Positions 614 to 10,755 of a stretch of DNA of 64,000 bases are shown piece by piece. Origin of the DNA: an uncultured Verrucomicrobiota bacterium. GTDB lineage: Bacteria > Verrucomicrobiota > Kiritimatiellia > RFP12 > UBA3636. Numbering within the stretch: position 1 is the first letter of the stretch; each line of letters starts with the position of its first letter. The stretch covers positions 47,750-111,749 of the forward strand of contig CALDQE010000025.1 in the NCBI GenBank assembly GCA_937911295.1, read 5' to 3'. The position numbers and the translations under genes are program-made. The notes under the pieces are model-generated. The model ran no database searches. It was not told the origin of the DNA and worked only from the letters and a program-made list of their open reading frames with translations.

Positions 614-1564
614 TTACTGAATGTTATCAAATTGTTCTTTTGGTAAATTATTTAATGCATCAACAATTGAAGCAGCAAAACGCTTTATCATAAACGATTC
701 AACTTCTTGAATGTCATTAACTTTTACATATTCTGTATTATCAGAAATTGGTCCAGCAAAAGAAAGCACAGTTGGTAAACTTGTCGAAGAAATATAGCGA
801 TTAATTGCGGAAAAATATGATGTTGGCAATGGGTAGCACTCATTTGCACTTGACTTTGTATTTGCACCCCAAACCCAAACACCAAAATCAAAATAATGTT
901 GTTCGTCTTTAAAATACTGACCAATCTTGTTATAAGGAGCTTCTGCTATGATAACAGCAACATTAATCGGTTTACCATTTTCTGAAAAAAGTTCAGGATA
1001 TTGCTCTGAAAGATAATCATTAAGCATATCTGGATCTGTAGCAGTTGCTCCAAACCAAAATTTAAATACTTCACTAGATAACAAAGAATACATATTTCGT
1101 TGCTCTTCAGTAAGTTCAAATTCTTTTTCACTTTTATTTTTTGGAAGACACATTTCAGATAGCTCAAACTCTGATTTAGGCATAATAAGTGCATTCATAA
1201 AGCCAACCATTTGTAAACTTACTTTGCTTTCATCAACACCAAATAAATCAGCAGCATACATTTTTTCAGTTTCAAATACTTCTTGGTGCCCTTCCTTCAG
1301 TGCTTGTAAATTCTCATCGTAATTAAACAATTTTCTAAAAAATTTTGATTTGCCGGCGTTTTGATCATGTATCTCAATACTCTTAAATGGATTATGCATA
1401 CTACCCACATACACATTTTCAATTCGATACGGTTGCTTACTTTCTACTCTATTCGAGACTTGTATATTTTCAGGCTTAAATGAAGATTCCGCCAAATAGG
1501 TGGTACATCCAGTAAAGACAGATGTAAATAGAGTTACTAAAATCATTAAATAATTATTTTTCAT
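614..1564 (-). CDS. Hypothetical lipoprotein of 316 aa
   Basis: The N-terminus MKNNYLMILVTLFTSVFTGC is a lipoprotein signal peptide with a lipobox. It is the last complete gene of the secreted-protein operon. I recognise no domain in it. Confidence 0.55.
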   Translation of the reverse strand: MKNNYLMILVTLFTSVFTGCTTYLAESSFKPENIQVSNRVESKQPYRIENVYVGSMHNPFKSIEIHDQNAGKSKFFRKLFNYDENLQALKEGHQEVFETEKMYAADLFGVDESKVSLQMVGFMNALIMPKSEFELSEMCLPKNKSEKEFELTEEQRNMYSLLSSEVFKFWFGATATDPDMLNDYLSEQYPELFSENGKPINVAVIIAEAPYNKIGQYFKDEQHYFDFGVWVWGANTKSSANECYPLPTSYFSAINRYISSTSLPTVLSFAGPISDNTEYVKVNDIQEVESFMIKRFAASIVDALNNLPKEQFDNIQ

Positions 1565-1617: not shown

Positions 1618-2187
1618 TTATTCTTTAGTAATTTCTGACATATCGCTCCATACTACAAGACTTTTTTTTACGTCAATAAGTTGCAAAGACAATACATGAG
1701 AATACATATCTCCATTACGATAGCAACGATAAGTGCCTCTCAACAAATAATCTGCTGGTTGGCGAGAATCAAAAGCTTGTTGAGATGCAATGTCCATATC
1801 ATTTATTTTAGAATCTCTTGATATTTTAGATGCTAATTCTCGAGGATTAGTATCGGCAATAATTTCAAAAAGACCTGTCTCTTGAAGAGTTTTTAGCAAA
1901 TATTCTCTTACTAATCCTATTTCTCGAAATGATCTTCTGTTTGAAAAATTCGATATGCTATCTATTTGTAATGATGGTTTTTTATTTTTGTTTAATACCA
2001 CTTGCTCTTTGAAAGCTGCATCATCCTGCATTCTTTTAATCAGATCTACAACCATTGTTTCAATATCTGAAACGGTTATAGTTTCTGCAGTATTTAAACG
2101 CATACTATTTGAATTAACACGTTCCATATTTGCACCGCCTGCAACAACCACTGCGGACAAAAATAGTAGTGACAATAATATTTTCAT
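1618..2187 (-). CDS. LpoB-like periplasmic protein; a paralog of the next gene that has lost its lipobox cysteine
   Basis: It has a signal peptide, MKILLSLLFLSAVVVAGGAN, with Gly where the lipobox Cys would be. Blocks such as TMVVDLIKRMQDD and LQIDSISNFSNRRSFREIGLVREYLLKTLQETGLFEII resemble the C-terminal domain of E. coli LpoB (VDSVNNRTNGSL ... LRNALANNGKFTLVS). The C-terminus, VWSDMSEITKE, matches the paralog. Confidence 0.5.
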   Translation of the reverse strand: MKILLSLLFLSAVVVAGGANMERVNSNSMRLNTAETITVSDIETMVVDLIKRMQDDAAFKEQVVLNKNKKPSLQIDSISNFSNRRSFREIGLVREYLLKTLQETGLFEIIADTNPRELASKISRDSKINDMDIASQQAFDSRQPADYLLRGTYRCYRNGDMYSHVLSLQLIDVKKSLVVWSDMSEITKE

Positions 2188-2192
2188 ACTTT

Positions 2193-2786
2193 TTACTCCT
2201 TAGCAATCTCTGCAATTTCGCTCCATACCTGAAATCCTGTTTTTATGTCAATAAGCTTGAGTGTTAATTCATAGGTATATCTATCTCCATCTTCAAAAGA
2301 ACGGTAAATGCCATACATCTGATAATCTGCTGACTTATGAGTACCGAAAACTTGTAAATTATCGTCATTTTTTAGACCAACCTCCACATTCTTTGTTATG
2401 GATTCGGCAAGTGTTTCAGAAACTGATTCTTGAGAATTAGCATCATCCGTAATTTCAAATAGTCTTGTTTTGCGCAAGGCAATCTCTAATCTCTTTCTTG
2501 CAGAGTTGAGCTTTGGGATTATGCGCTCTTTTGCATGATTTTCAATATTTCCTATCTGCAACACCGGCTTAGCGTTTTTAGATGCTGCCAGCAAATCGTA
2601 ATGTTCTTTAAATGCTTCATCGTCTTGCATTTTTTCAACTAAATCTGCAACTGCCGTTTTTATATCATAAATTGTTTCATTACTTGCTTTATCGAAGTTA
2701 ACACTATTAGGATTTACATATCCGTGATTTGCACAGCCAGCGAATAATATTGCTGATAATGATAGTAGTGATAATATTTTTTTCAT
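2193..2786 (-). CDS. LpoB-like lipoprotein; tandem paralog of 1618..2187
   Basis: I moved the start to MKKILSLLSLSAILFAGC (lipobox LFAGC) at 2786. The longer ORF reaching 2963 would overlap the upstream gene. It shares TAVADLVEKMQDDEAFKE and a C-terminal VWSEIAEIAKE with its neighbour. Confidence 0.55.
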   Translation of the reverse strand: MKKILSLLSLSAILFAGCANHGYVNPNSVNFDKASNETIYDIKTAVADLVEKMQDDEAFKEHYDLLAASKNAKPVLQIGNIENHAKERIIPKLNSARKRLEIALRKTRLFEITDDANSQESVSETLAESITKNVEVGLKNDDNLQVFGTHKSADYQMYGIYRSFEDGDRYTYELTLKLIDIKTGFQVWSEIAEIAKE

Positions 2787-2799
2787 AATTTGTTCCTGT

Positions 2800-4440
2800 T
2801 TATTTACCGAAAACTGAGTTTTTTGGTTTGGATGAAGCTGAGTTATCATTTTTACGCTGTTGACCATAATTAGAATAAGGAGTTGTAGATTGCTCCACCG
2901 AAAAAACCTCTGGAGGTAAGTTAACTGTCCCAGTTGGAGTTGTATCTGCTCGAGAAGTTGCAAAACGCTCCACCTCTGCTCCTGTCATTGGTTTACCTGT
3001 TTGAGCATCGATTATGGACACAGAGCCGTCATCATTATACGAATAAGTAATCCCTGCATATTTAACATTCTTCTCTCTCAATTCTTGATTTATCTTATAT
3101 CCCCCCACATCAACTACACCATGAAATAGTGCCTCTTCCGGATTAGGATATTCATTATACGTACCCAATGTTTGTTTTAAATCAATTGTCCTTGTTTCTA
3201 AATTGTAAACTACTTCTTCTCCTGTGGAATTTTGAAATTTTGCATATTTTATACCTTTTTCACTATACTTTTCTAGGTATTGCTCTATTTGTTGGGGTTT
3301 TGTTATTCTTGTACTTGCGCTGAAAGCTTCTGCACCTACATCAGCACCCTCAAGAATACAAACTGCTACTGCACCAACGGGGCCACCAAAAACAGAACCT
3401 ACTAATCCACCTCCGACACATCCTAGAATAGTTCCCAATGCTGTTACTCCATTCTTCTTACTTTTCCGCTCTTCAAATTTGCTGACCGAGTTTATGTTGT
3501 CTGGTTGATGAAATTGATCTCCCAACACAAGACAAAAATCTCGTTGATTCCCATTACGAATCTCTCTCATCATATCGTCAGGAGTATAAGGAACAGCCAT
3601 ACCAATATTTTGTCCTTCATGTGTATTTGTCGCTATTTTAAATTTTTCCCGTTCATTAGCTCCAACAACTAAAACATCTTGCAATGAGCCTGACCATTCT
3701 TTCTTTGGGTCATAATTTGGGCTCCCCGGTTTATTGTATCTGAGTGCTTCTTTTAAGCCTCTTTCTTGATTTGGATTATAATTCTCTTTGAGAGTAGTGT
3801 TGTTTGTACCATCCTTATTACTAATTTTTTTTACCATATCAATTGCAGCGTCTATACCGTCAGATATTTTTTCCAAATTTTCCTCAACCGTTGGTTTTGG
3901 CTGTTCAACAGCAACTTCTGAAGAGGAACTATTAACACTTGGTATATCCAAGTTGGTTTGTGGCTTTTTGGTAGTAGTAGACGGTTTTGAAGTTGGTGTA
4001 CCTTGAGGCTTTGATGTTGGTGTACCTTGAGGCTTTGATGTTGTTTTAGGCTTTTGCTGATTAAGCTCGTTTCGAATATTTCCGAAATCAAGAACCATTT
4101 TTTCAAGTTCCATTCTACGTTTATTATCAGCAATTTTATCTTCAATAGTGTTTGGTGGAAGGATTTGAACTTGATTCTTACATTCTGTACACTCATAAAT
4201 CAGTATTCCAGAAATTACTCCTTGCTTTCTAACAAAGTTAAATGATAAACAATAATGCTTTTCTTCTAGACGTTTAAGATTTTGATTGAGGAGATTAGTA
4301 ACTGCTTCTTGTTCTTCTTGTGCTTGTTCTTGTGCTTGTTTTTCATCTATTGGTATAACTGGAGGAGCACCAAATGATAATGCTAGAGCGGAATTACAAA
4401 AAAACAATCCTAATATTGCGATTGTAATATAATTTTTCAT
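2800..4440 (-). CDS. Secreted protein with a PT-rich tandem-repeat linker and a C-terminal glycine-zipper segment
   Basis: It carries a signal peptide, MKNYITIAILGLFFCNSALA. The motif TSKPQGTP is repeated. A Gly-zipper stretch, LGTILGCVGGGLVGSVFGGPVGAVAVCILEGADVG, sits near the C-terminus. Its stop overlaps the next start by 4 bp (4437-4440). Confidence 0.6.
   Translation of the reverse strand: MKNYITIAILGLFFCNSALALSFGAPPVIPIDEKQAQEQAQEEQEAVTNLLNQNLKRLEEKHYCLSFNFVRKQGVISGILIYECTECKNQVQILPPNTIEDKIADNKRRMELEKMVLDFGNIRNELNQQKPKTTSKPQGTPTSKPQGTPTSKPSTTTKKPQTNLDIPSVNSSSSEVAVEQPKPTVEENLEKISDGIDAAIDMVKKISNKDGTNNTTLKENYNPNQERGLKEALRYNKPGSPNYDPKKEWSGSLQDVLVVGANEREKFKIATNTHEGQNIGMAVPYTPDDMMREIRNGNQRDFCLVLGDQFHQPDNINSVSKFEERKSKKNGVTALGTILGCVGGGLVGSVFGGPVGAVAVCILEGADVGAEAFSASTRITKPQQIEQYLEKYSEKGIKYAKFQNSTGEEVVYNLETRTIDLKQTLGTYNEYPNPEEALFHGVVDVGGYKINQELREKNVKYAGITYSYNDDGSVSIIDAQTGKPMTGAEVERFATSRADTTPTGTVNLPPEVFSVEQSTTPYSNYGQQRKNDNSASSKPKNSVFGK
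3973..4041 (-). repeat. In-frame 24-nt tandem repeat (ggtgtaccttgaggctttgatgtt, about 2.5 copies) that encodes the TSKPQGTP linker repeats
   Basis: The direct repeat is visible in the sequence between 3970 and 4050. Confidence 0.7.
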
Positions 4441-5882
4441 TGTAGAATATTCCCAATAGCTTTAATTCCTTCAATAATGCTTTTGCCTGTATCCACACCA
4501 GTCTTAACAGCTTCTAGCCCATCAATAAGCGACGGAGATGAGGGCTGTGTTTGTGTATCTACTGGTTGTTGTGATTGTTGAATAGGTGCTTGTACTGGTT
4601 GTACAGGCTGTTGCTGCACTGGAGTATAGCTATTTTCTTGTGGTTGTTGTTGCTCAAGAGGGATTGCAACACCTACATCTGTATTGTCATGACGCTCACG
4701 TTGTGACTTTTCTTCCTTGGATTGCTTCTCATTTGTTTTAGCATCTTCATCTCCATCTGTTTCTACATCATCATCCGCACCTGATGAAAGAGGTGAAGGT
4801 GCTGCTTCTGCATCATTCAACCCTAATGCAGAACCTGCTTGATTAAGTAAATCATTTGTAGAAGTACCTACCCCTTCACCGTTCTTATCTGGATTCAAGC
4901 CAAAATCTGGCATTTCACAATCTCTCATTGATAAAACCTGAGGCATACCATTTAAGCGTGTATATGAGCTAGATAAATATTCACCATAGCCTCTTGCACG
5001 TAGCAATCGAACTTGGTCATCTGTTGCTCCTGATTTCTCAATTCTATCCATTAGTGCATCAAAATGCTTGTCCTCTTTACGAATCTTTCTACCCTCTTCG
5101 TTTTCGCGTAAAACAACCATGAATGTGGTTCCTTCTTGAAGCTTAGCACGCACTTCAAATGGTGTTGTATATGGATATGAAATTTTTACATTATGAAGTC
5201 CATCTGAAACCTTAACCTTGAGAGGTGCTTCACCAATTGTTCCTGCTGTTCCATAAGAAACACCATCAATAGACACATCTGCACCAGGGAAATTACATCC
5301 AAATGCTACCTCTATAAGCTTTATCTTCATGTCTTTCCATGCAACCTTTTCACATTTTGCTAGAAATTCTTTGGATGCCTTTGCGACAAGATTTTCGACT
5401 AAATCATAATAAATAGAATCTGCATCTTGAGAAAGCATTGACGGAGTAAACGTCCTTGAGACCTCTGTAACAGTTACAGAAGCAACATTTGCCCCTTTGG
5501 GAATACGCTTTGCAGACAATGTAAGCCTCATTTTTACAGCATTAGCTTTTGCTGGACTACCATAACTGATGATTGATGTTTCACCTACTGCTGCAGTAAT
5601 CAAAACCTGTGCCTCCAAATTCTCAGCCAAGCGTGTAGCAGAGGAAAGTGGCATATTTTCACCCCATGGACCACGATTTTGCTGCTCTCCAATCACATCA
5701 TTTGGATCAATTATATTAAAAAGCTCTTGTGAAAGTTCAGCAGAAATTGCATCACCTAGATTGGATAATGGCTTTTGATATTCATCTGACGCATGGTTTT
5801 GAACAATCAAAACAGCATCAATAGGCTCAGAAACAACAAAACTTGCAAAAAAACAGATAACTAATAATAGAAAATTTTTCAT
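4437..5882 (-). CDS. Secreted protein with a PEGA-like domain and a Q/P-rich C-terminal tail
   Basis: It has a signal peptide, MKNFLLLVICFFASFVVSE. The segment GADVSIDGVSYGTAGTIGEAPLKVKVSDGLHNVKISYPYTTPFEVRAKL fits the PEGA pattern. The C-terminus is low-complexity: QQQPQENSYTPVQQQPVQPVQAPIQQSQQPVDTQTQ. Confidence 0.55.
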   Translation of the reverse strand: MKNFLLLVICFFASFVVSEPIDAVLIVQNHASDEYQKPLSNLGDAISAELSQELFNIIDPNDVIGEQQNRGPWGENMPLSSATRLAENLEAQVLITAAVGETSIISYGSPAKANAVKMRLTLSAKRIPKGANVASVTVTEVSRTFTPSMLSQDADSIYYDLVENLVAKASKEFLAKCEKVAWKDMKIKLIEVAFGCNFPGADVSIDGVSYGTAGTIGEAPLKVKVSDGLHNVKISYPYTTPFEVRAKLQEGTTFMVVLRENEEGRKIRKEDKHFDALMDRIEKSGATDDQVRLLRARGYGEYLSSSYTRLNGMPQVLSMRDCEMPDFGLNPDKNGEGVGTSTNDLLNQAGSALGLNDAEAAPSPLSSGADDDVETDGDEDAKTNEKQSKEEKSQRERHDNTDVGVAIPLEQQQPQENSYTPVQQQPVQPVQAPIQQSQQPVDTQTQPSSPSLIDGLEAVKTGVDTGKSIIEGIKAIGNILQ

Positions 5883-5909: not shown

Positions 5910-6299
5910 TTAAAGAGGACGAATCGTCAATTTAAATTCTTTAGCATCGGGTAATGGACAAACACCTTGAATTACAGCCTCCTCTTTGCCTGTTAAATAG
6001 AAAATTTTCCATCCCTGTGTTGCGGATTTTATGACCATCCCATTCTTGTCATACCAAGTAAATTGATATTGAAAATTTATATCCTTATCATACTTATTTT
6101 TAATAGTAATTTGAGTTTTCAGAAAATCACCATCCAAAACAATAGGTCGTTCTTCTATCAACTCAACAAAGGATGCAAAGGAATAACTTTCTATAATAAT
6201 ATTCCCTTTTTTCAATGAAATACCAGCGGTAGTTGGTGCAACACATCCGACTACAAGACCAAAAACACATACAGATAAAAACATAGTAAAAATTTTCAT
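5910..6299 (-). CDS. Small lipoprotein of 129 aa, YcfL-like (DUF1425-type)
   Basis: The lipobox reads VFGLVVGC. Its size and its beta-rich composition are typical of YcfL-family lipoproteins. Confidence 0.45.
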   Translation of the reverse strand: MKIFTMFLSVCVFGLVVGCVAPTTAGISLKKGNIIIESYSFASFVELIEERPIVLDGDFLKTQITIKNKYDKDINFQYQFTWYDKNGMVIKSATQGWKIFYLTGKEEAVIQGVCPLPDAKEFKLTIRPL

Positions 6300-6312: not shown

Positions 6313-6981
6313 TTAAAAACCTAAATTCATAATTGGGAAAAACTCAAGTGACGAACCTTCATTATAATTACCAAGACCTATTTGTAATCCTTCAAAATTC
6401 TTTGCTGAGTTCCAAACACCCAATTGAACCCCACTTCCAGCTCTAGCTATATTCACTAAACCTAGCTGCAAACCGCTAAGTTCAGTTGCACGATTTAAGA
6501 CACCTATCTGTAAACCTGTCAACACTCCGTCAGTTGAATTTAAAATCGATGCTGCTTGCACCCCATAGAAATCACCAATGGATCTATTGACTATTCCAGC
6601 AAACTGTAGAGCTCCGTCTGAATACCCTATTTTATTATAAATTCCAGCACTTTGAACCCCGATAAAATTATTCTTTACTTCATTACCAACACAACCGAGA
6701 TCCAACCCATAAACATTATTGTGACGCCCAACAAATATGTTAATTCTCAAAAAGAAAACATCCCAATTTTCGGCAGGAATTTCAACACCAGGGAATAAAC
6801 CAATAGCAAATGGGCAGGTTCCTTCTCCAATTTCGCTGGATTTTTCTGTCAAATCCCTTACTTTAGCAGTGCCATTTTGGTATGCAGAATTATTCTGTTT
6901 AAATGAGTTTACTCGTACAACATCTGCTGTTGCAGTGATTGCCACACAGCAAACGGCAAACACGAAAAATATCTTTTTCAT
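6313..6981 (-). CDS. Secreted repeat protein with seven G-[LV]-Q-x-G-x-x-N-x-A units (curli-like Q/N motif)
   Basis: It has a signal peptide, MKKIFFVFAVCCVAITATA. The imperfect repeats include GVQAASILNSTDG, GLQIGVLNRATELS, GLQLGLVNIARAGS, GVQLGVWNSAKNFE and GLQIGLGNYNEG. It is the first gene of the operon. Confidence 0.6.
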   Translation of the reverse strand: MKKIFFVFAVCCVAITATADVVRVNSFKQNNSAYQNGTAKVRDLTEKSSEIGEGTCPFAIGLFPGVEIPAENWDVFFLRINIFVGRHNNVYGLDLGCVGNEVKNNFIGVQSAGIYNKIGYSDGALQFAGIVNRSIGDFYGVQAASILNSTDGVLTGLQIGVLNRATELSGLQLGLVNIARAGSGVQLGVWNSAKNFEGLQIGLGNYNEGSSLEFFPIMNLGF

Positions 6982-7059: not shown

Positions 7060-7100
7060 AAAGCCTCCCTTTATATCTTAAGAGAGGCCGTGAGAGTGCC
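7060..7100 (-). terminator. Weak rho-independent terminator downstream of 7436..9544
   Basis: On the minus strand there is a hairpin, gcctc-N-gaggc, followed by ttttt. It lies about 340 nt after the stop codon. Confidence 0.25.
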
Positions 7101-7435
7101 ACAAACACAATACAAAGAGAGGCACGTAAATACACTACGTGGCTCTGCATTATATCGGTGTTTTGAAATTTCTCACGTTTCTCTTAACGATAACCTGCAG
7201 TAACAATAAAATTCTGAAGAGATTCACTAATCCCTTATTTGTATTGTGAATAATATCACTTATTGAATTTATTGGCAAGAATATTTTTCTTACAAGAACA
7301 AATTTTGGACTATTTCTTAGTCAAACAGCATAAAATTCAACATTTGAGACGAATTTTACTTGTGCGAAAACCATTGAAGGCTGTCGCTTCAAAGCACACA
7401 CCTACTTACTGAGATTCGCTATCATATTGGTGTTA

Positions 7436-9544
7436 CTAATTTGATTTACCTACAAATATGTCTGGCCAACTGTCATTGGAGGTATTGTAGGTTATACGAA
7501 GAGTCTGTTTTGTCTCTACATTCATAAGAAATATCTCATAATCACAACTATCCTGCTCATGTCCTCCTGTACTTGCTCCATATACAAGCCAGTTACCATC
7601 CGGAGAAAAACGAGGGAAATACTCGTGACTAAAATCACTTTCTGAATCAAAAAATATTTTTCCTGGCGGATTTAATGCATCACACCAAAAGATGCTATTC
7701 TTTTGCTTGCCCGGATGGTTCATATATGCAAATTCTGTACTGCCGCTCTTTCTCCAAACTGCCTGACACCCAGAATCTATCTTTTGAAGCTTCTTCCCAT
7801 CCTTAGATATGCTTGCAATATAATTCATACGACCTCGAAGTGTTACAAGAAGGCTTGGCTCTGTATCATTTATATCTGGAATTGTAAGCTGTGTTCCTTC
7901 TAAAATTGGAGCAACTCCACTTTTTAATATTACTCTATCCTCTGTGGTAATAACACCATTTTTTTCAATTATTGTTGCTTGAACCAGCTCTGATGCGTCA
8001 TTACGCATAAAAACTACCGAATGCCCACTTGGATCCCAAACAGCCATAAACGCATTTGTTGCAAGCAAACACTCTTCCCCCTTTTCAAAATCGTACAAAT
8101 ATGTATCCCATTTACTCATATTTCTAAGGGATACCCATGGCTCTGTAGAACGAGAGAAAACAAATTTAGTTCCATCAGGAGAAAGCTTTGGATATGTATC
8201 TGTAAAGCCAGAATTAGTTAGGCGAGTAATTTCTCCAGAAGCAATATCCTGAGAATAAATACTATGCAAGCCATCCCTATTTGAACTCCACACAATTCTT
8301 CCCGCAAGTCCATTTAAAAATTCAGCCCTATGCTGAAGCTCTTCGGCAGGGATTTCTATACTACTACCCTTTGGTGGCGGGGTAAGGCGTCCTCCCTTCA
8401 CAAAGCTACGATACGACAAAAGTAAAAAGCCAAATGCTATTGCTATTGTGCTAAGCAATACTCCAGCACGTAGCATAGCTTGCCATGTGATTTTCTTATC
8501 GCATTTTGTCTTCTCAGCAATTTCTGCATTACTGTCTGTTTTCCAGACAAAAGCAATCAAAGATATAGCACCCAATGAATAATCGATAATTTGGCTAATA
8601 AAGTGCATTGCGAACATAGCAATTACAACAAACTTTAATGACGCTTCACCAAAGCCCATGAGCTTAAAAGCTGAGATACCACCAGTTTCATAAGTACCAA
8701 AGCTCATAAAAGAAGGAACTGGCAATGCTGCAGAGCCTTCAGCACCTATTAGAGCCAGAACCACCTGTGAGCTCGATGCTGCTGCCAATTCAGCAGAAAG
8801 AGGTATAACAACCGACTGAAACAAGAATAACAAACCAGCATATTTACATGCTCTTACACACACAGACAGGAGCAATACCTGTAAAAGCTTACCACTCTTT
8901 CGCACAGCAACAACAGAAGTGGCTGTATCTTCTAATAGATTAAACAGAGCAACCAAAAATTTTGGGAGCGATGTGAAGCGTGCTTTTATTCGAGCTGCAA
9001 GTTTACCAAAACAAGGTAAAATATAAAATATTCCAACACCCCCAATAATGCATAGCAATACTAGCATTATTACTGAGCCAAGTAGCGAAATACTATTGGT
9101 TGCCATTGGTAGAGCAACAGCAAATACTAATAATAATCCAATAAAATCAAAAAGCAAAGATATAGAAAGAGAAGAAAGACCATCGGCTACAGCAATGCCA
9201 CAGCCTCGCTTTAGCAGTGCAACATAGCTCAATTCACCTATTCTCGCAGGAAGCATATCTACAAAAGCTCCACGAACGAAGGTTACAAGAATCATTGGTG
9301 TGAGTTTTACTTCTGTACCAGCACTCTTGAGCAAAATCTTTGCTCTAATCGCTCTAAAGAAGGTCTGCAATATTTGGCAAATAAGGTATATTGCAACATA
9401 AAACATAACTGCTGATTTTGCTGCATCTACAATTGTAACAATAGACACATCCCCATTCTCGCCAGAAACAAGCTTAAGCAGTAAGCCTACAAGAATAATT
9501 GAAACGATAATTGAGGCAACAAATTTTATAATACTTTTCTTCAT
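7436..9544 (-). CDS. Fusion protein: an N-terminal polytopic flippase-like domain of the lysyl-phosphatidylglycerol-synthase TM type (UPF0104) joined to a C-terminal TolB-like (PD40) beta-propeller
   Basis: The first ~330 residues have multiple TM helices and a flippase-like pattern (FVRGAFVDMLPARIGELSYVALLKRGCG). The C-terminal half has PD40-like repeats: LSPDGTKFVFSRS, FSPDGNWLVYGAS and WSSNRDGLHSIY. Confidence 0.6.
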   Translation of the reverse strand: MKKSIIKFVASIIVSIILVGLLLKLVSGENGDVSIVTIVDAAKSAVMFYVAIYLICQILQTFFRAIRAKILLKSAGTEVKLTPMILVTFVRGAFVDMLPARIGELSYVALLKRGCGIAVADGLSSLSISLLFDFIGLLLVFAVALPMATNSISLLGSVIMLVLLCIIGGVGIFYILPCFGKLAARIKARFTSLPKFLVALFNLLEDTATSVVAVRKSGKLLQVLLLSVCVRACKYAGLLFLFQSVVIPLSAELAAASSSQVVLALIGAEGSAALPVPSFMSFGTYETGGISAFKLMGFGEASLKFVVIAMFAMHFISQIIDYSLGAISLIAFVWKTDSNAEIAEKTKCDKKITWQAMLRAGVLLSTIAIAFGFLLLSYRSFVKGGRLTPPPKGSSIEIPAEELQHRAEFLNGLAGRIVWSSNRDGLHSIYSQDIASGEITRLTNSGFTDTYPKLSPDGTKFVFSRSTEPWVSLRNMSKWDTYLYDFEKGEECLLATNAFMAVWDPSGHSVVFMRNDASELVQATIIEKNGVITTEDRVILKSGVAPILEGTQLTIPDINDTEPSLLVTLRGRMNYIASISKDGKKLQKIDSGCQAVWRKSGSTEFAYMNHPGKQKNSIFWCDALNPPGKIFFDSESDFSHEYFPRFSPDGNWLVYGASTGGHEQDSCDYEIFLMNVETKQTLRITYNTSNDSWPDIFVGKSN

Positions 9545-9750: not shown

Positions 9751-10755
9751 TTATAAACCAACCAATATATCGCGAAGCTTAGTGCGAACCTCATCAAGAG
9801 ACATCCCTGTTAAGGAAGCACCCGCTGCACGAGCATGACCACCGCCACCAAGCCTTGCACAAATTGCAGCTGCGTCGTATGGCTCTTTTGTGCGCAAGCT
9901 TATGTTTACAGGTGCATTAGGGAATGGTTGACGAATAAATGCAGCCATTTCTACCCCACGTATAGAGCGGACAATATCCACAAAATTCTCTGAATCAGAG
10001 CCTATGCAACCCTCTGCAGCAAAATCTTCGCTTGTTAGAAAACCAACAGCAATTTTGCCATTACACTCAACTGAAATACTCTTAATTAGGCGTTGTTGGA
10101 GCATTAGTCGCTTCAGTGGCTGGCTTCCATATATTTGCTCATTAATATACTCAGTGCGTACTCCTTGAGCAGCTAGCTTTGCGCCTATCTCAAGGGTAAG
10201 AGGTGATGTACAGCTATAAGCGAAACGACCAGTATCGGTCACTATACCCGTCCAAAGTGCTTCAGCTATTGCTCTATCAAAGTGGCAATGTGGCATGGCA
10301 GCAAGAAGCTGATAAACCAATTCACTAGAAGCAGCAGCATCCTCGTCTATCAAAGCTTTCTTTGCAAAGCCATCGATATAACCCTTATGGTGATCTACAC
10401 AAAGGGAGACACCAATCTTTGGAAAAACTTCCTTTAATTCATCTGGCAAGCGCTTTGCTGTATTGCAATCAACAACAATTAGAAAATCATCATCCTTCAA
10501 TTGGTCCACTGTTAGGACATATTCCATTCCTTGGAGAAATGCGTATTCTGGGCGGAGCTCATTAAAACCAATGCAATGAGCATCAAAGCCCTGTGTACGC
10601 AAGCCCAAGCACAAACCGAGAGCAGTGCCATAAGCATCACCATCTGGGTTAATATGTGCAGAAATCACAATTCTTGTGGCAGGGTCTACTGCTGCAAGAT
10701 ATGAGGCTGCAGCTTTTAGCTGCTCAGCAAAATTATTCTCTTTAGACTCACTCAT
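9751..10755 (-). CDS. nrnA: DHH-family phosphoesterase (NrnA-like bifunctional oligoribonuclease / pAp phosphatase)
   Basis: The DHH motifs ISAHINPDGDAYGTALGL and CVDHHKGY are present, and the C-terminus has the DHHA1-like GGGHARAAG. Confidence 0.75.
   Translation of the reverse strand: MSESKENNFAEQLKAAASYLAAVDPATRIVISAHINPDGDAYGTALGLCLGLRTQGFDAHCIGFNELRPEYAFLQGMEYVLTVDQLKDDDFLIVVDCNTAKRLPDELKEVFPKIGVSLCVDHHKGYIDGFAKKALIDEDAAASSELVYQLLAAMPHCHFDRAIAEALWTGIVTDTGRFAYSCTSPLTLEIGAKLAAQGVRTEYINEQIYGSQPLKRLMLQQRLIKSISVECNGKIAVGFLTSEDFAAEGCIGSDSENFVDIVRSIRGVEMAAFIRQPFPNAPVNISLRTKEPYDAAAICARLGGGGHARAAGASLTGMSLDEVRTKLRDILVGL

Follow-up and report, generated by a model that had tools for sequence, protein, structure and literature searches.

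In this work, we analyzed a repeat-protein gene, here called g1 (or REP, for its counterparts elsewhere), and the operon that it heads within a 64,000-nt stretch of DNA from a gut or rumen Kiritimatiellae bacterium (assembly GCA_937911295.1, contig CALDQE010000025.1, positions 47,750 to 111,749; hereafter the window). The gene lies on the minus strand at positions 6313..6981 of the window (stop codon 6313-6315), as do all features given below, and encodes an exported 222-amino-acid (aa) repeat protein of the LA_2272 family, annotated at NCBI, under a Kiritimatiellae metagenome-assembled genome, as hypothetical. A 454-nt intergenic region lies upstream of it, and six co-directional genes, g2 to g7, follow at gaps of -4 to 53 nt. 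Inspection found N-terminal signal peptides in all seven products and lipoboxes in those of g2, g5 and g7, in agreement with the initial annotation of this DNA, which had placed g1 first in an operon of exported proteins. The same annotation had compared g1 with curli-type functional amyloid subunits; that assignment failed, and what stands of the proposal is a repeat protein with probably stacked Gln/Asn ladders, encoded first in an operon whose lipoproteins are of the assembly type.

Repeat architecture of g1

The protein begins with a signal peptide, as had been proposed, which is of the Sec/signal peptidase I (SPase-I) type (aa 1-19, 6925..6981; MKKIFFVFAVCCVAITATA|DVV), which ends in an A-T-A cleavage site of the A-x-A type and has no canonical lipobox. 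Its homologues likewise carry A-x-A type signals, most of them without a lipobox; these signal peptide and lipobox calls were made with regular expressions and by inspection, with no dedicated predictor. A linker follows (aa 20-54, 6820..6924), which is poorly conserved (high column entropy) and modelled with low confidence (block pLDDT, the predicted local distance difference test, of 53-72). The remainder of the chain is repetitive, and comprises a Pro-rich, putative N-terminal cap with degenerate rungs (aa 55-107, 6661..6819; CPFAIGLFPGVEIPAENWDV / FFLRINIFVGRHNNVY / GLDLGCVGNEVKNNFI), three 16-aa units of the type G-x-Q-x-A-G/S-x-x-N (aa 108-155, 6517..6660), four 14-aa units of the type G-phi-Q-phi-G-phi-phi-N-x-A-x-x-phi-x (aa 156-211, 6349..6516) and a C-terminal half rung or cap (aa 212-222, 6316..6348; LEFFPIMNLGF) with a conserved Pro, an invariant Asn and a terminal Phe.

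The seven imperfect repeats described in the initial annotation are real. The regular expression [GA].Q.{1,2}[GAS]..N finds seven units in g1, starting at aa 108, 124, 140, 156, 170, 184 and 198, whereas none of 20,000 shuffles of the mature sequence reached four (shuffle maximum, 3). The unit length, first given as 13-16 residues, is 16 aa in three units (GVQSAGIYN, ALQFAGIVN and GVQAASILN, with one extra residue between Q and G) and 14 aa in four (GLQIGVLN, GLQLGLVN, GVQLGVWN and GLQIGLGN), each with one Q and one N. Degenerate units at aa 76-107 (e.g. GLDLGCVGN) and the half unit FFPIMNLGF on the C-terminal side bring the total to about 11, as does the ladder of Asn residues at aa 100, 116, 132, 148, 163, 177, 191, 205 and 219. 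The spacing of this ladder (16/16/16/15/14/14/14/14) is carried on into the otherwise divergent C-terminal segment, whose invariant Asn is in register with it. No tandem repeat was found when the g1 DNA was searched at the nucleotide level, so the periodicity has been kept at the protein level.

Conservation follows the same pattern. Among 84 homologues, the G, Q, G and N positions of the unit are invariant or at least 90% conserved, and a family profile of 253 units has G in 245, Q in 247 and the second G in 229. Outside the regular units, P56, P63, P68, R78, G91 and N99 are conserved in the N-terminal cap region, and at the C-terminus N218 is invariant and F221 is present in 81 of 83 sequences (numbering of alignment A1, which, like that of the structural model, is the protein numbering minus 1). 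The mature protein consists of 14% Gly and 10% Asn.

Family membership and core motif

Profile searches showed that g1 is a clear member of the LA_2272 repeat family, which is catalogued and functionally unstudied. It scored 58.6 bits against NCBIfam NF047436 (LA_2272 repeat; cut-off 25) over two matched stretches, one of them at aa 154-179, and 40.6 bits against NF047435 (LA_2272/LA_2273 lipoprotein, N-terminal domain; cut-off 30) at about aa 64-116; NF047436 was also matched by all 84 aligned family members. Against the VC2662 equivalog model NF047437 it reached 48.9 bits, below the cut-off of 140; g1 is related to the VC2662 family and is not an equivalog of it. We found 145 homologues, the named ones belonging to Kiritimatiellia, Lentisphaeria and Omnitrophota, and an exhaustive profile search sized the family at 10,704 clusters at 50% identity (E<=1e-3; 2,500 at E<=1e-30), with lengths from about 180 to about 1000 aa. 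The family profile retrieved nothing from the PDB sequences at E<=10. The G-x-Q-x-G-x-x-N periodicity is common to g1 and to the family; in contrast to the Leptospira LA_2272/LA_2273 lipoproteins, however, g1 has an SPase-I signal and not the lipoprotein signal implied by the family name, and it sits in a module specific to Kiritimatiellia and Lentisphaeria.

Several other arrangements of the repeat occur in the family. The homologue P0213 combines sub-threshold STN and CarboxypepD_reg matches with 17 units of 16 aa and an aromatic-rich C-terminal domain, P0196 and P0217 are fusions of Sel1 and the repeat, and these were the only domain fusions seen in long members. Tandem paralogues of the repeat gene are present in locus L006, and a second copy lies within the module in L023.

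NCBI curators have labelled the family 'surface repeat', and in the literature we found no functional study of LA_2272, LIC11664 or VC2662. LA2272 was earlier threaded onto the pertactin beta-helix (PMC2387172), and VC2662 was increased in the proteome of a Vibrio cholerae delta-ompU strain along with OmpT, OmpA and OmpV, where its deletion left colony corrugation, the sole phenotype examined, unchanged (PMC10865864).

The curli subunits CsgA/CsgB and g1 are both exported, both are built from imperfect tandem repeats in which Gln, Gly, Asn and Ala are conserved (cores Q-x-G-x-G-N-x-A and Q-x-G-x-x-N-x-A, respectively), both are probably stacked beta-solenoids with polar ladders, and proteins of the CsgG structural superfamily are encoded near g1. 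Nevertheless, the curlin repeat model PF07012 (Curlin_rpt) matched neither g1 at E<=1 nor any of the 84 family members at E<=10, and hhalign of the family profile against E. coli CsgA gave a probability of 0.2% with only the signal peptides aligned (the CsgA sequence, like that of RIPK1 used below, was entered by hand). Furthermore, the g1 unit of 14-16 aa is shorter than the curli unit of about 22 aa (strand-turn-strand of about 19-23 residues, S-x5-Q-x-G-x-G-N-x-A-x3-Q), a difference that the initial annotation had rightly pointed out, the ends of g1 are predicted to be capped, and the window holds no csgB, csgE, csgF or csgG family genes. A curlin identity is rejected on the missing PF07012 match, the hhalign result and the unit length, and with g1 placed instead in a family that is already catalogued, its interpretation as a curli subunit should be given up.

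At the level of the motif, the unit core is closer to a different group of amyloids. Amyloid-signalling motifs of the RHIM, fungal PP and bacterial BASS3 types have G-phi-Q-phi-G as their core (PMC7885112), and the 14-aa units of g1 carry exactly this core (GLQIG, GLQLG, GVQLG and GLQIG), each time followed by x-x-N. The RIPK1 core (TGIQIGAYNYME) aligned with the family consensus G-x-Q-i-G-x-x-N-x-a at an hhalign probability of 57% (pairwise E 1e-4), an alignment that amounts to a 12-residue motif match and is not evidence of homology. The Pfam RHIM model (PF12721) matched 9 of the 84 family members weakly (best E 0.015) and did not match g1 at E<=10. Judged by its motif, the g1 unit looks like an archetypal cross-beta rung, present in about ten copies in one exported chain. 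By contrast, RHIM, PP and BASS3 motifs occur singly and in the cytosol, span about 20 aa and adopt their fold only through polymerisation that is templated between NLR-type receptors and effectors; the short likeness is probably convergent.

Predicted fold of g1

AlphaFold2 (AF2), supplied with the 84-sequence alignment, returned a confident model (mean pLDDT 90, pLDDT 98 over aa 50-220, predicted template-modelling score 0.75) that is all-beta, with a helix at aa 2-15. Every unit contributes one strand run, 12-14 residues in length, and the sole interruption falls at the G-x step of Q-x-G-x-x-N. Foldseek found no significant match to the model in the PDB or in BFVD. However, all 41 weak PDB neighbours are solenoids (LpxA, LpxD, GlmU, gamma-carbonic-anhydrase-like proteins, tapirin, the spruce budworm antifreeze protein and leucine-rich-repeat proteins), with no outer-membrane barrel, lipocalin or OspA-like sheet among them, and the BFVD comparison showed a similar solenoid trend. 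Neither the model nor its neighbours point to a barrel, LysM or OmpA fold, and the regular all-beta repeat is compatible with the beta-solenoid that the initial annotation had named as one possibility. The antifreeze protein (PDB 1m8n) has coils of similar length (12-15 residues) and, as is predicted for g1, flat repetitive faces built from in-register residues. Against this, TM-scores to antifreeze solenoids are 0.12-0.18 and not significant, g1 has no T-x-T ice-binding face, and its host lives in gut or rumen.

Three features of the sequence bear on the topology. First, the long strand runs have no hydrophobic face: the mean Kyte-Doolittle value lies between -1.0 and +1.6 on both faces, and Arg, Lys, Glu, Asn and Gln occur on both, which argues against lipid-embedded strands. 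Second, the 16-aa units have one residue more than the 14-aa units in each half and keep all the invariant positions, which favors a widened coil over a re-registered hairpin. Third, in-register pairs of opposite charge are overrepresented between neighbouring units (at position 11-11, 112 opposite versus 71 same), and no such enrichment was seen at the pairs predicted by a hairpin model. Together with the solenoid-only neighbours and the periodic Asn, these features make a solenoid the likely topology of the modelled protein. In addition, both terminal rungs contain conserved Pro residues, and we infer that these rungs act as caps against end-to-end association.

Not all observations favor this topology. 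The charge-pair statistics are noisy, and since control offsets and non-adjacent units give comparable z values we treat this signal as weak, even if it leans to in-register stacking. The DSSP pattern of 12-14-residue runs with 2-residue breaks is also compatible with a meander of hairpins. Besides, the C-terminal Phe is near-invariant (F in 111 of 121 homologues; an aromatic residue in 113 of 142 diverse representatives) and resembles the signal read by the beta-barrel assembly machinery (BAM). The last two points fit a second explanation, namely that g1 is a BAM-inserted integral outer-membrane protein with one transmembrane strand per repeat, and that the lipoproteins of the operon are its periplasmic partners, in the manner of LptE to LptD or PelC to PelB. 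The runs with their 2-residue turns have membrane-spanning length, hydrophobic residues alternate before the terminal Phe in a beta-signal-like end (...FFPIMNLGF), partners of LptE/PelC fold are encoded downstream, and the sub-threshold STN and CarboxypepD_reg matches of P0213 are typical of outer-membrane receptor N-termini; the increase of VC2662 alongside OmpT, OmpA and OmpV points the same way (PMC10865864). Notwithstanding, barrels are usually easy to match and none appeared among the neighbours of a model with a pLDDT of 98, the strand runs lack the hydrophobic face such a protein would need, and a Q/N register that is the same in 14-aa and 16-aa units would fit stacking better than hairpin pairing. 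We regard an integral outer-membrane protein as improbable.

The operon, its conservation and the proposed role of g1

The second gene, g2 (5910..6299), encodes a YcfL/DUF1425 lipoprotein (lipobox VVGC; PF07233, 73.8 bits) with PDB relatives 3o0l (E 2e-11) and 4gio (C. jejuni Cj0090). It is followed by g3 (4437..5882), whose exported product combines an N-terminal domain of the FlgT/CsgG/PelC/LptE/LpoB type with a PEGA beta-sandwich (PEGA, 24.7 bits), a disordered Q/P-rich stretch of about 100 aa and a terminal amphipathic C-terminal helix. This is the most conserved gene of the module, with 47-62% identity to distant loci, and its product contains long invariant motifs, e.g. FGCNxPGADVSIDGxSYGTAGT and KSGATDD. 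Its AF2 model has a pLDDT >90 over aa 20-270 and matched FlgT (1e-8), CsgG in its pre-pore form only (4e-6), PelC (1e-5) and LptE (1e-5) in Foldseek, as well as GNA1162 and HpaA; the best structural match was the Vibrio flagellar H-ring protein FlgT (3w1e, 8z5n). Proteins of this fold class are outer-membrane-associated, often ring-forming lipoproteins. The product of the following gene, g4 (2800..4440), is exported, 546 aa long and of low complexity; it contains a KPQGTPTS repeat as well as a Gly-zipper segment and is hypervariable between strains. g5 (2193..2786) encodes an LpoB-family lipoprotein (lipobox FAGC; PF13036, 57.9 bits) and g6 (1618..2187) an LpoB-family paralogue with a signal peptide and no lipobox Cys (PF13036, 29.6 bits). 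Comparison of g5 (...ILFAGCAN) with g6 (...VVVAGGAN) shows that the latter has lost the lipobox cysteine, so that of these two LpoB-like proteins one is probably anchored and the other soluble. The last gene, g7 (614..1564), encodes a 316-aa predicted lipoprotein (lipobox FTGC) of unknown family that is not conserved in the closest relative.

Comparison with this relative, locus L010, divided the operon into parts of different conservation. The leader and g1-g3 are 98.3% identical in DNA (97-99% in the g1-g3 proteins) and g5-g6 are 88.5% identical, whereas g4 shares 34% protein identity with its counterpart and is almost unalignable in DNA, and g7 has no counterpart there. The operon is a mosaic, and these values suggest diversifying selection or cassette exchange inside an otherwise conserved operon.

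The 5' leader of g1 (7062..7278) starts with a sigma70-like promoter (7278-7250) and, no more than about 80 nt ahead of the g1 ATG, contains a strong hairpin that resembles a terminator and has a U-run (7089-7062). In a helix 3' of this hairpin, extending to about 6985, the sequence CUCCUCU pairs with, and would sequester, the Shine-Dalgarno sequence AGAGGGG. Folding of the 264-nt leader gave z = -4.77, and none of 200 shuffles folded as well. Rfam assigned no family anywhere in the window, and in the leader only a sub-threshold PyrR match was obtained (22.6 bits versus 54). The close relatives L010 and L011 share the leader at about 97% identity but have unrelated DNA directly 5' of the promoter, and conservation of the leader does not extend beyond close relatives. 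Judging from these sequence features, it may be a cis-regulatory attenuator, a riboswitch-like element or a small RNA. Further upstream, the product of the gene at 7436-9544 is a 702-aa protein in which an LPG_synthase_TM (MprF-type transmembrane) domain is fused to a PD40/TolB-like beta-propeller; a link of the repeat protein to this gene was ruled out, as the gene is absent from the other loci.

The association of the repeat protein with its neighbours is a conserved one. All close homologue contigs examined have the order REP, DUF1425, g3, LpoB, and of the independent genome loci retrieved with g3, 15 of 18 contain REP, among them that of the cultured Oligosphaera ethanolica DSM 24202, in which the gene order differs. 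A scan of genome contigs with g1 as a single protein gave no match, whereas the scan with g3 succeeded. The module is conserved across Kiritimatiellia and Lentisphaeria. In several Kiritimatiellia contigs (loci L001, L003, L004 and L009), three unknown genes past the module are followed by an RcpC/SAF protein, a secretin and an FHA-T2SSE ATPase, a Tad/type-IV-pilus-like export locus; our window ends at g7, so the corresponding region 3' of the module lies outside it.

A related arrangement is found in ycfL-lpoB operons such as those of E. coli and of C. jejuni (cj0089-cj0090-cj0091), in which, as in the g1 operon, a DUF1425/YcfL-fold lipoprotein is followed by LpoB-family lipoproteins. Cj0090 shares its operon with the LpoB homologue Cj0091, and the YcfL-LpoB pairs of Campylobacter and Helicobacter, which have a tetratricopeptide-repeat (TPR) lipoprotein as the first gene, have been discussed for envelope maintenance (PMC11394524). 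In both the C. jejuni operon and that of g1, a third exported protein is encoded first, this being a TPR lipoprotein in Campylobacter/Helicobacter and an LA_2272 repeat protein here; beyond this, the g1 module has a FlgT-like PEGA protein and a hypervariable gene.

In another explanation, g1 would be a stand-alone surface or periplasmic solenoid, whose exposed Gln ladder and aromatic stripe would bind a glycan (such as peptidoglycan or polysaccharide) or another periodic surface, and whose neighbours would be only loosely related to its function. The conserved Q3 and the semi-conserved aromatics at unit positions 7 and 9 could indeed be surface-exposed, the family has been labelled a surface repeat by its curators, and its members differ widely in architecture and copy number, reach about 1000 aa and include fusions to Sel1 or STN/CarboxypepD_reg. 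Most of its distant members are solitary and stand in unrelated contexts. On the other hand, the tight linkage to DUF1425, g3 and LpoB in Kiritimatiellia and Lentisphaeria survives changes of gene order. We consider this explanation unlikely, albeit the most probable of the three alternatives.

A further alternative concerns the downstream lipoproteins, which the initial annotation had proposed as secretion and assembly factors. The downstream genes are conserved partners of g1, and the products of three of them have a fold of the CsgG/PelC/LptE/LpoB type; however, no match to the CsgG, CsgE or CsgF families was found in the 64-kb window, nor a second REP paralogue or nucleator, and g3 shares with CsgG only the broad CsgG/PelC/LptE/FlgT fold, the operon neighbours matching DUF1425, PEGA and LpoB. 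The g1 product might still be a curli- or RHIM-like functional-amyloid or fibre subunit, exported through a CsgG/PelC-fold ring encoded downstream and joined end to end into a cross-beta polymer. Its core equals that of RHIM, PP and BASS3 (PMC7885112), it is rich in Gly and Asn with Gln/Asn ladders, and g3 (CsgG/PelC-like), g5 and g6 (LpoB-like) would provide the machinery. Several facts speak against such a polymer. There is no homology to curlin, g1 itself has no RHIM match and the best in its family is weak, and the query sequences of RIPK1 and CsgA were entered by hand. The conserved terminal rungs with Pro look like caps, the entire array folds confidently as a single chain, and the match of g3 to non-channel relatives (FlgT, LptE, GNA1162) equals or exceeds that to CsgG, of which only the pre-pore form was matched. 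We hold both amyloid fibre formation by g1 and its export through such a ring to be improbable.

Taken together, the results are best explained if g1 is a capped, monomeric LA_2272 beta-solenoid of the periplasm or outer-membrane region, serving as a rigid scaffold or a binding face in a clade-specific envelope complex, a reading to which we assign a probability of about 0.55. The family, the export signal, the periodicity and the linkage of the genes are established by the analysis, and the solenoid topology, the caps and the complex are inferred from them. According to this model, g1 would be exported by Sec and processed by SPase-I. After the short disordered linker, about 11 units of 14-16 residues would stack in register as the rungs of a narrow beta-solenoid. 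From the pattern of the sequence, the invariant Gly residues would lie at the arcs, the invariant Gln and Asn would line up as ladders that run along the axis, the core would be filled by L/I/V at unit positions 2, 4, 6 and 13 and by Ala at position 10, and the variable positions 9, 11, 12 and 14 would be exposed to solvent. The first and last rungs, with their Pro residues, would cap the stack, which would therefore be a monomeric rod about 5 nm long and not an open-ended fibre. Going by the gene linkage, this rod would work with the YcfL-type Ig-like lipoprotein, the FlgT/CsgG/PelC-fold PEGA protein and the LpoB-family lipoproteins, as a rigid scaffold or spacer, or as a ligand-binding face, in a periplasmic envelope complex anchored to the outer membrane of Kiritimatiellia and Lentisphaeria.

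In addition to the doubts raised above about the topology, two points weigh against this proposal. The more distant REP homologues are solitary and have no lipoprotein genes beside them, so the partnership with lipoproteins may be clade-specific, and the deletion of VC2662 in the delta-ompU background left the one phenotype examined as it was.

It is tempting to speculate further that the LA_2272 family as a whole (>10,000 clusters, in diderm phyla) consists of exported, concatenated RHIM/PP-like cross-beta rungs, that is, of 'pre-stacked amyloids', which in Kiritimatiellia and Lentisphaeria are served by a machine of FlgT/CsgG/PelC-fold and YcfL-type lipoproteins. We put this forward as a long shot. 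If it were true, the machine would either secrete g1 and polymerise it as a fibre on the surface, or build it into a ring or strut in the periplasm; such a functional-amyloid-like envelope system would have no relation to curli, Fap or TasA.

Independently of this speculation, the family to which g1 belongs, with its roughly 10,700 clusters at 50% identity, still lacks both an assigned function and a solved structure, and has a predicted fold without a significant neighbour in the PDB. For structural study, g1 would offer a natural, monomeric, multi-rung version of the RHIM/PP-type cross-beta rung. Furthermore, the linkage of the repeat protein, within this clade, to YcfL-, LpoB- and FlgT/CsgG-fold proteins gives a genetic handle on poorly understood envelope lipoproteins, and a concrete one, since Oligosphaera ethanolica DSM 24202 is in culture and carries the module.

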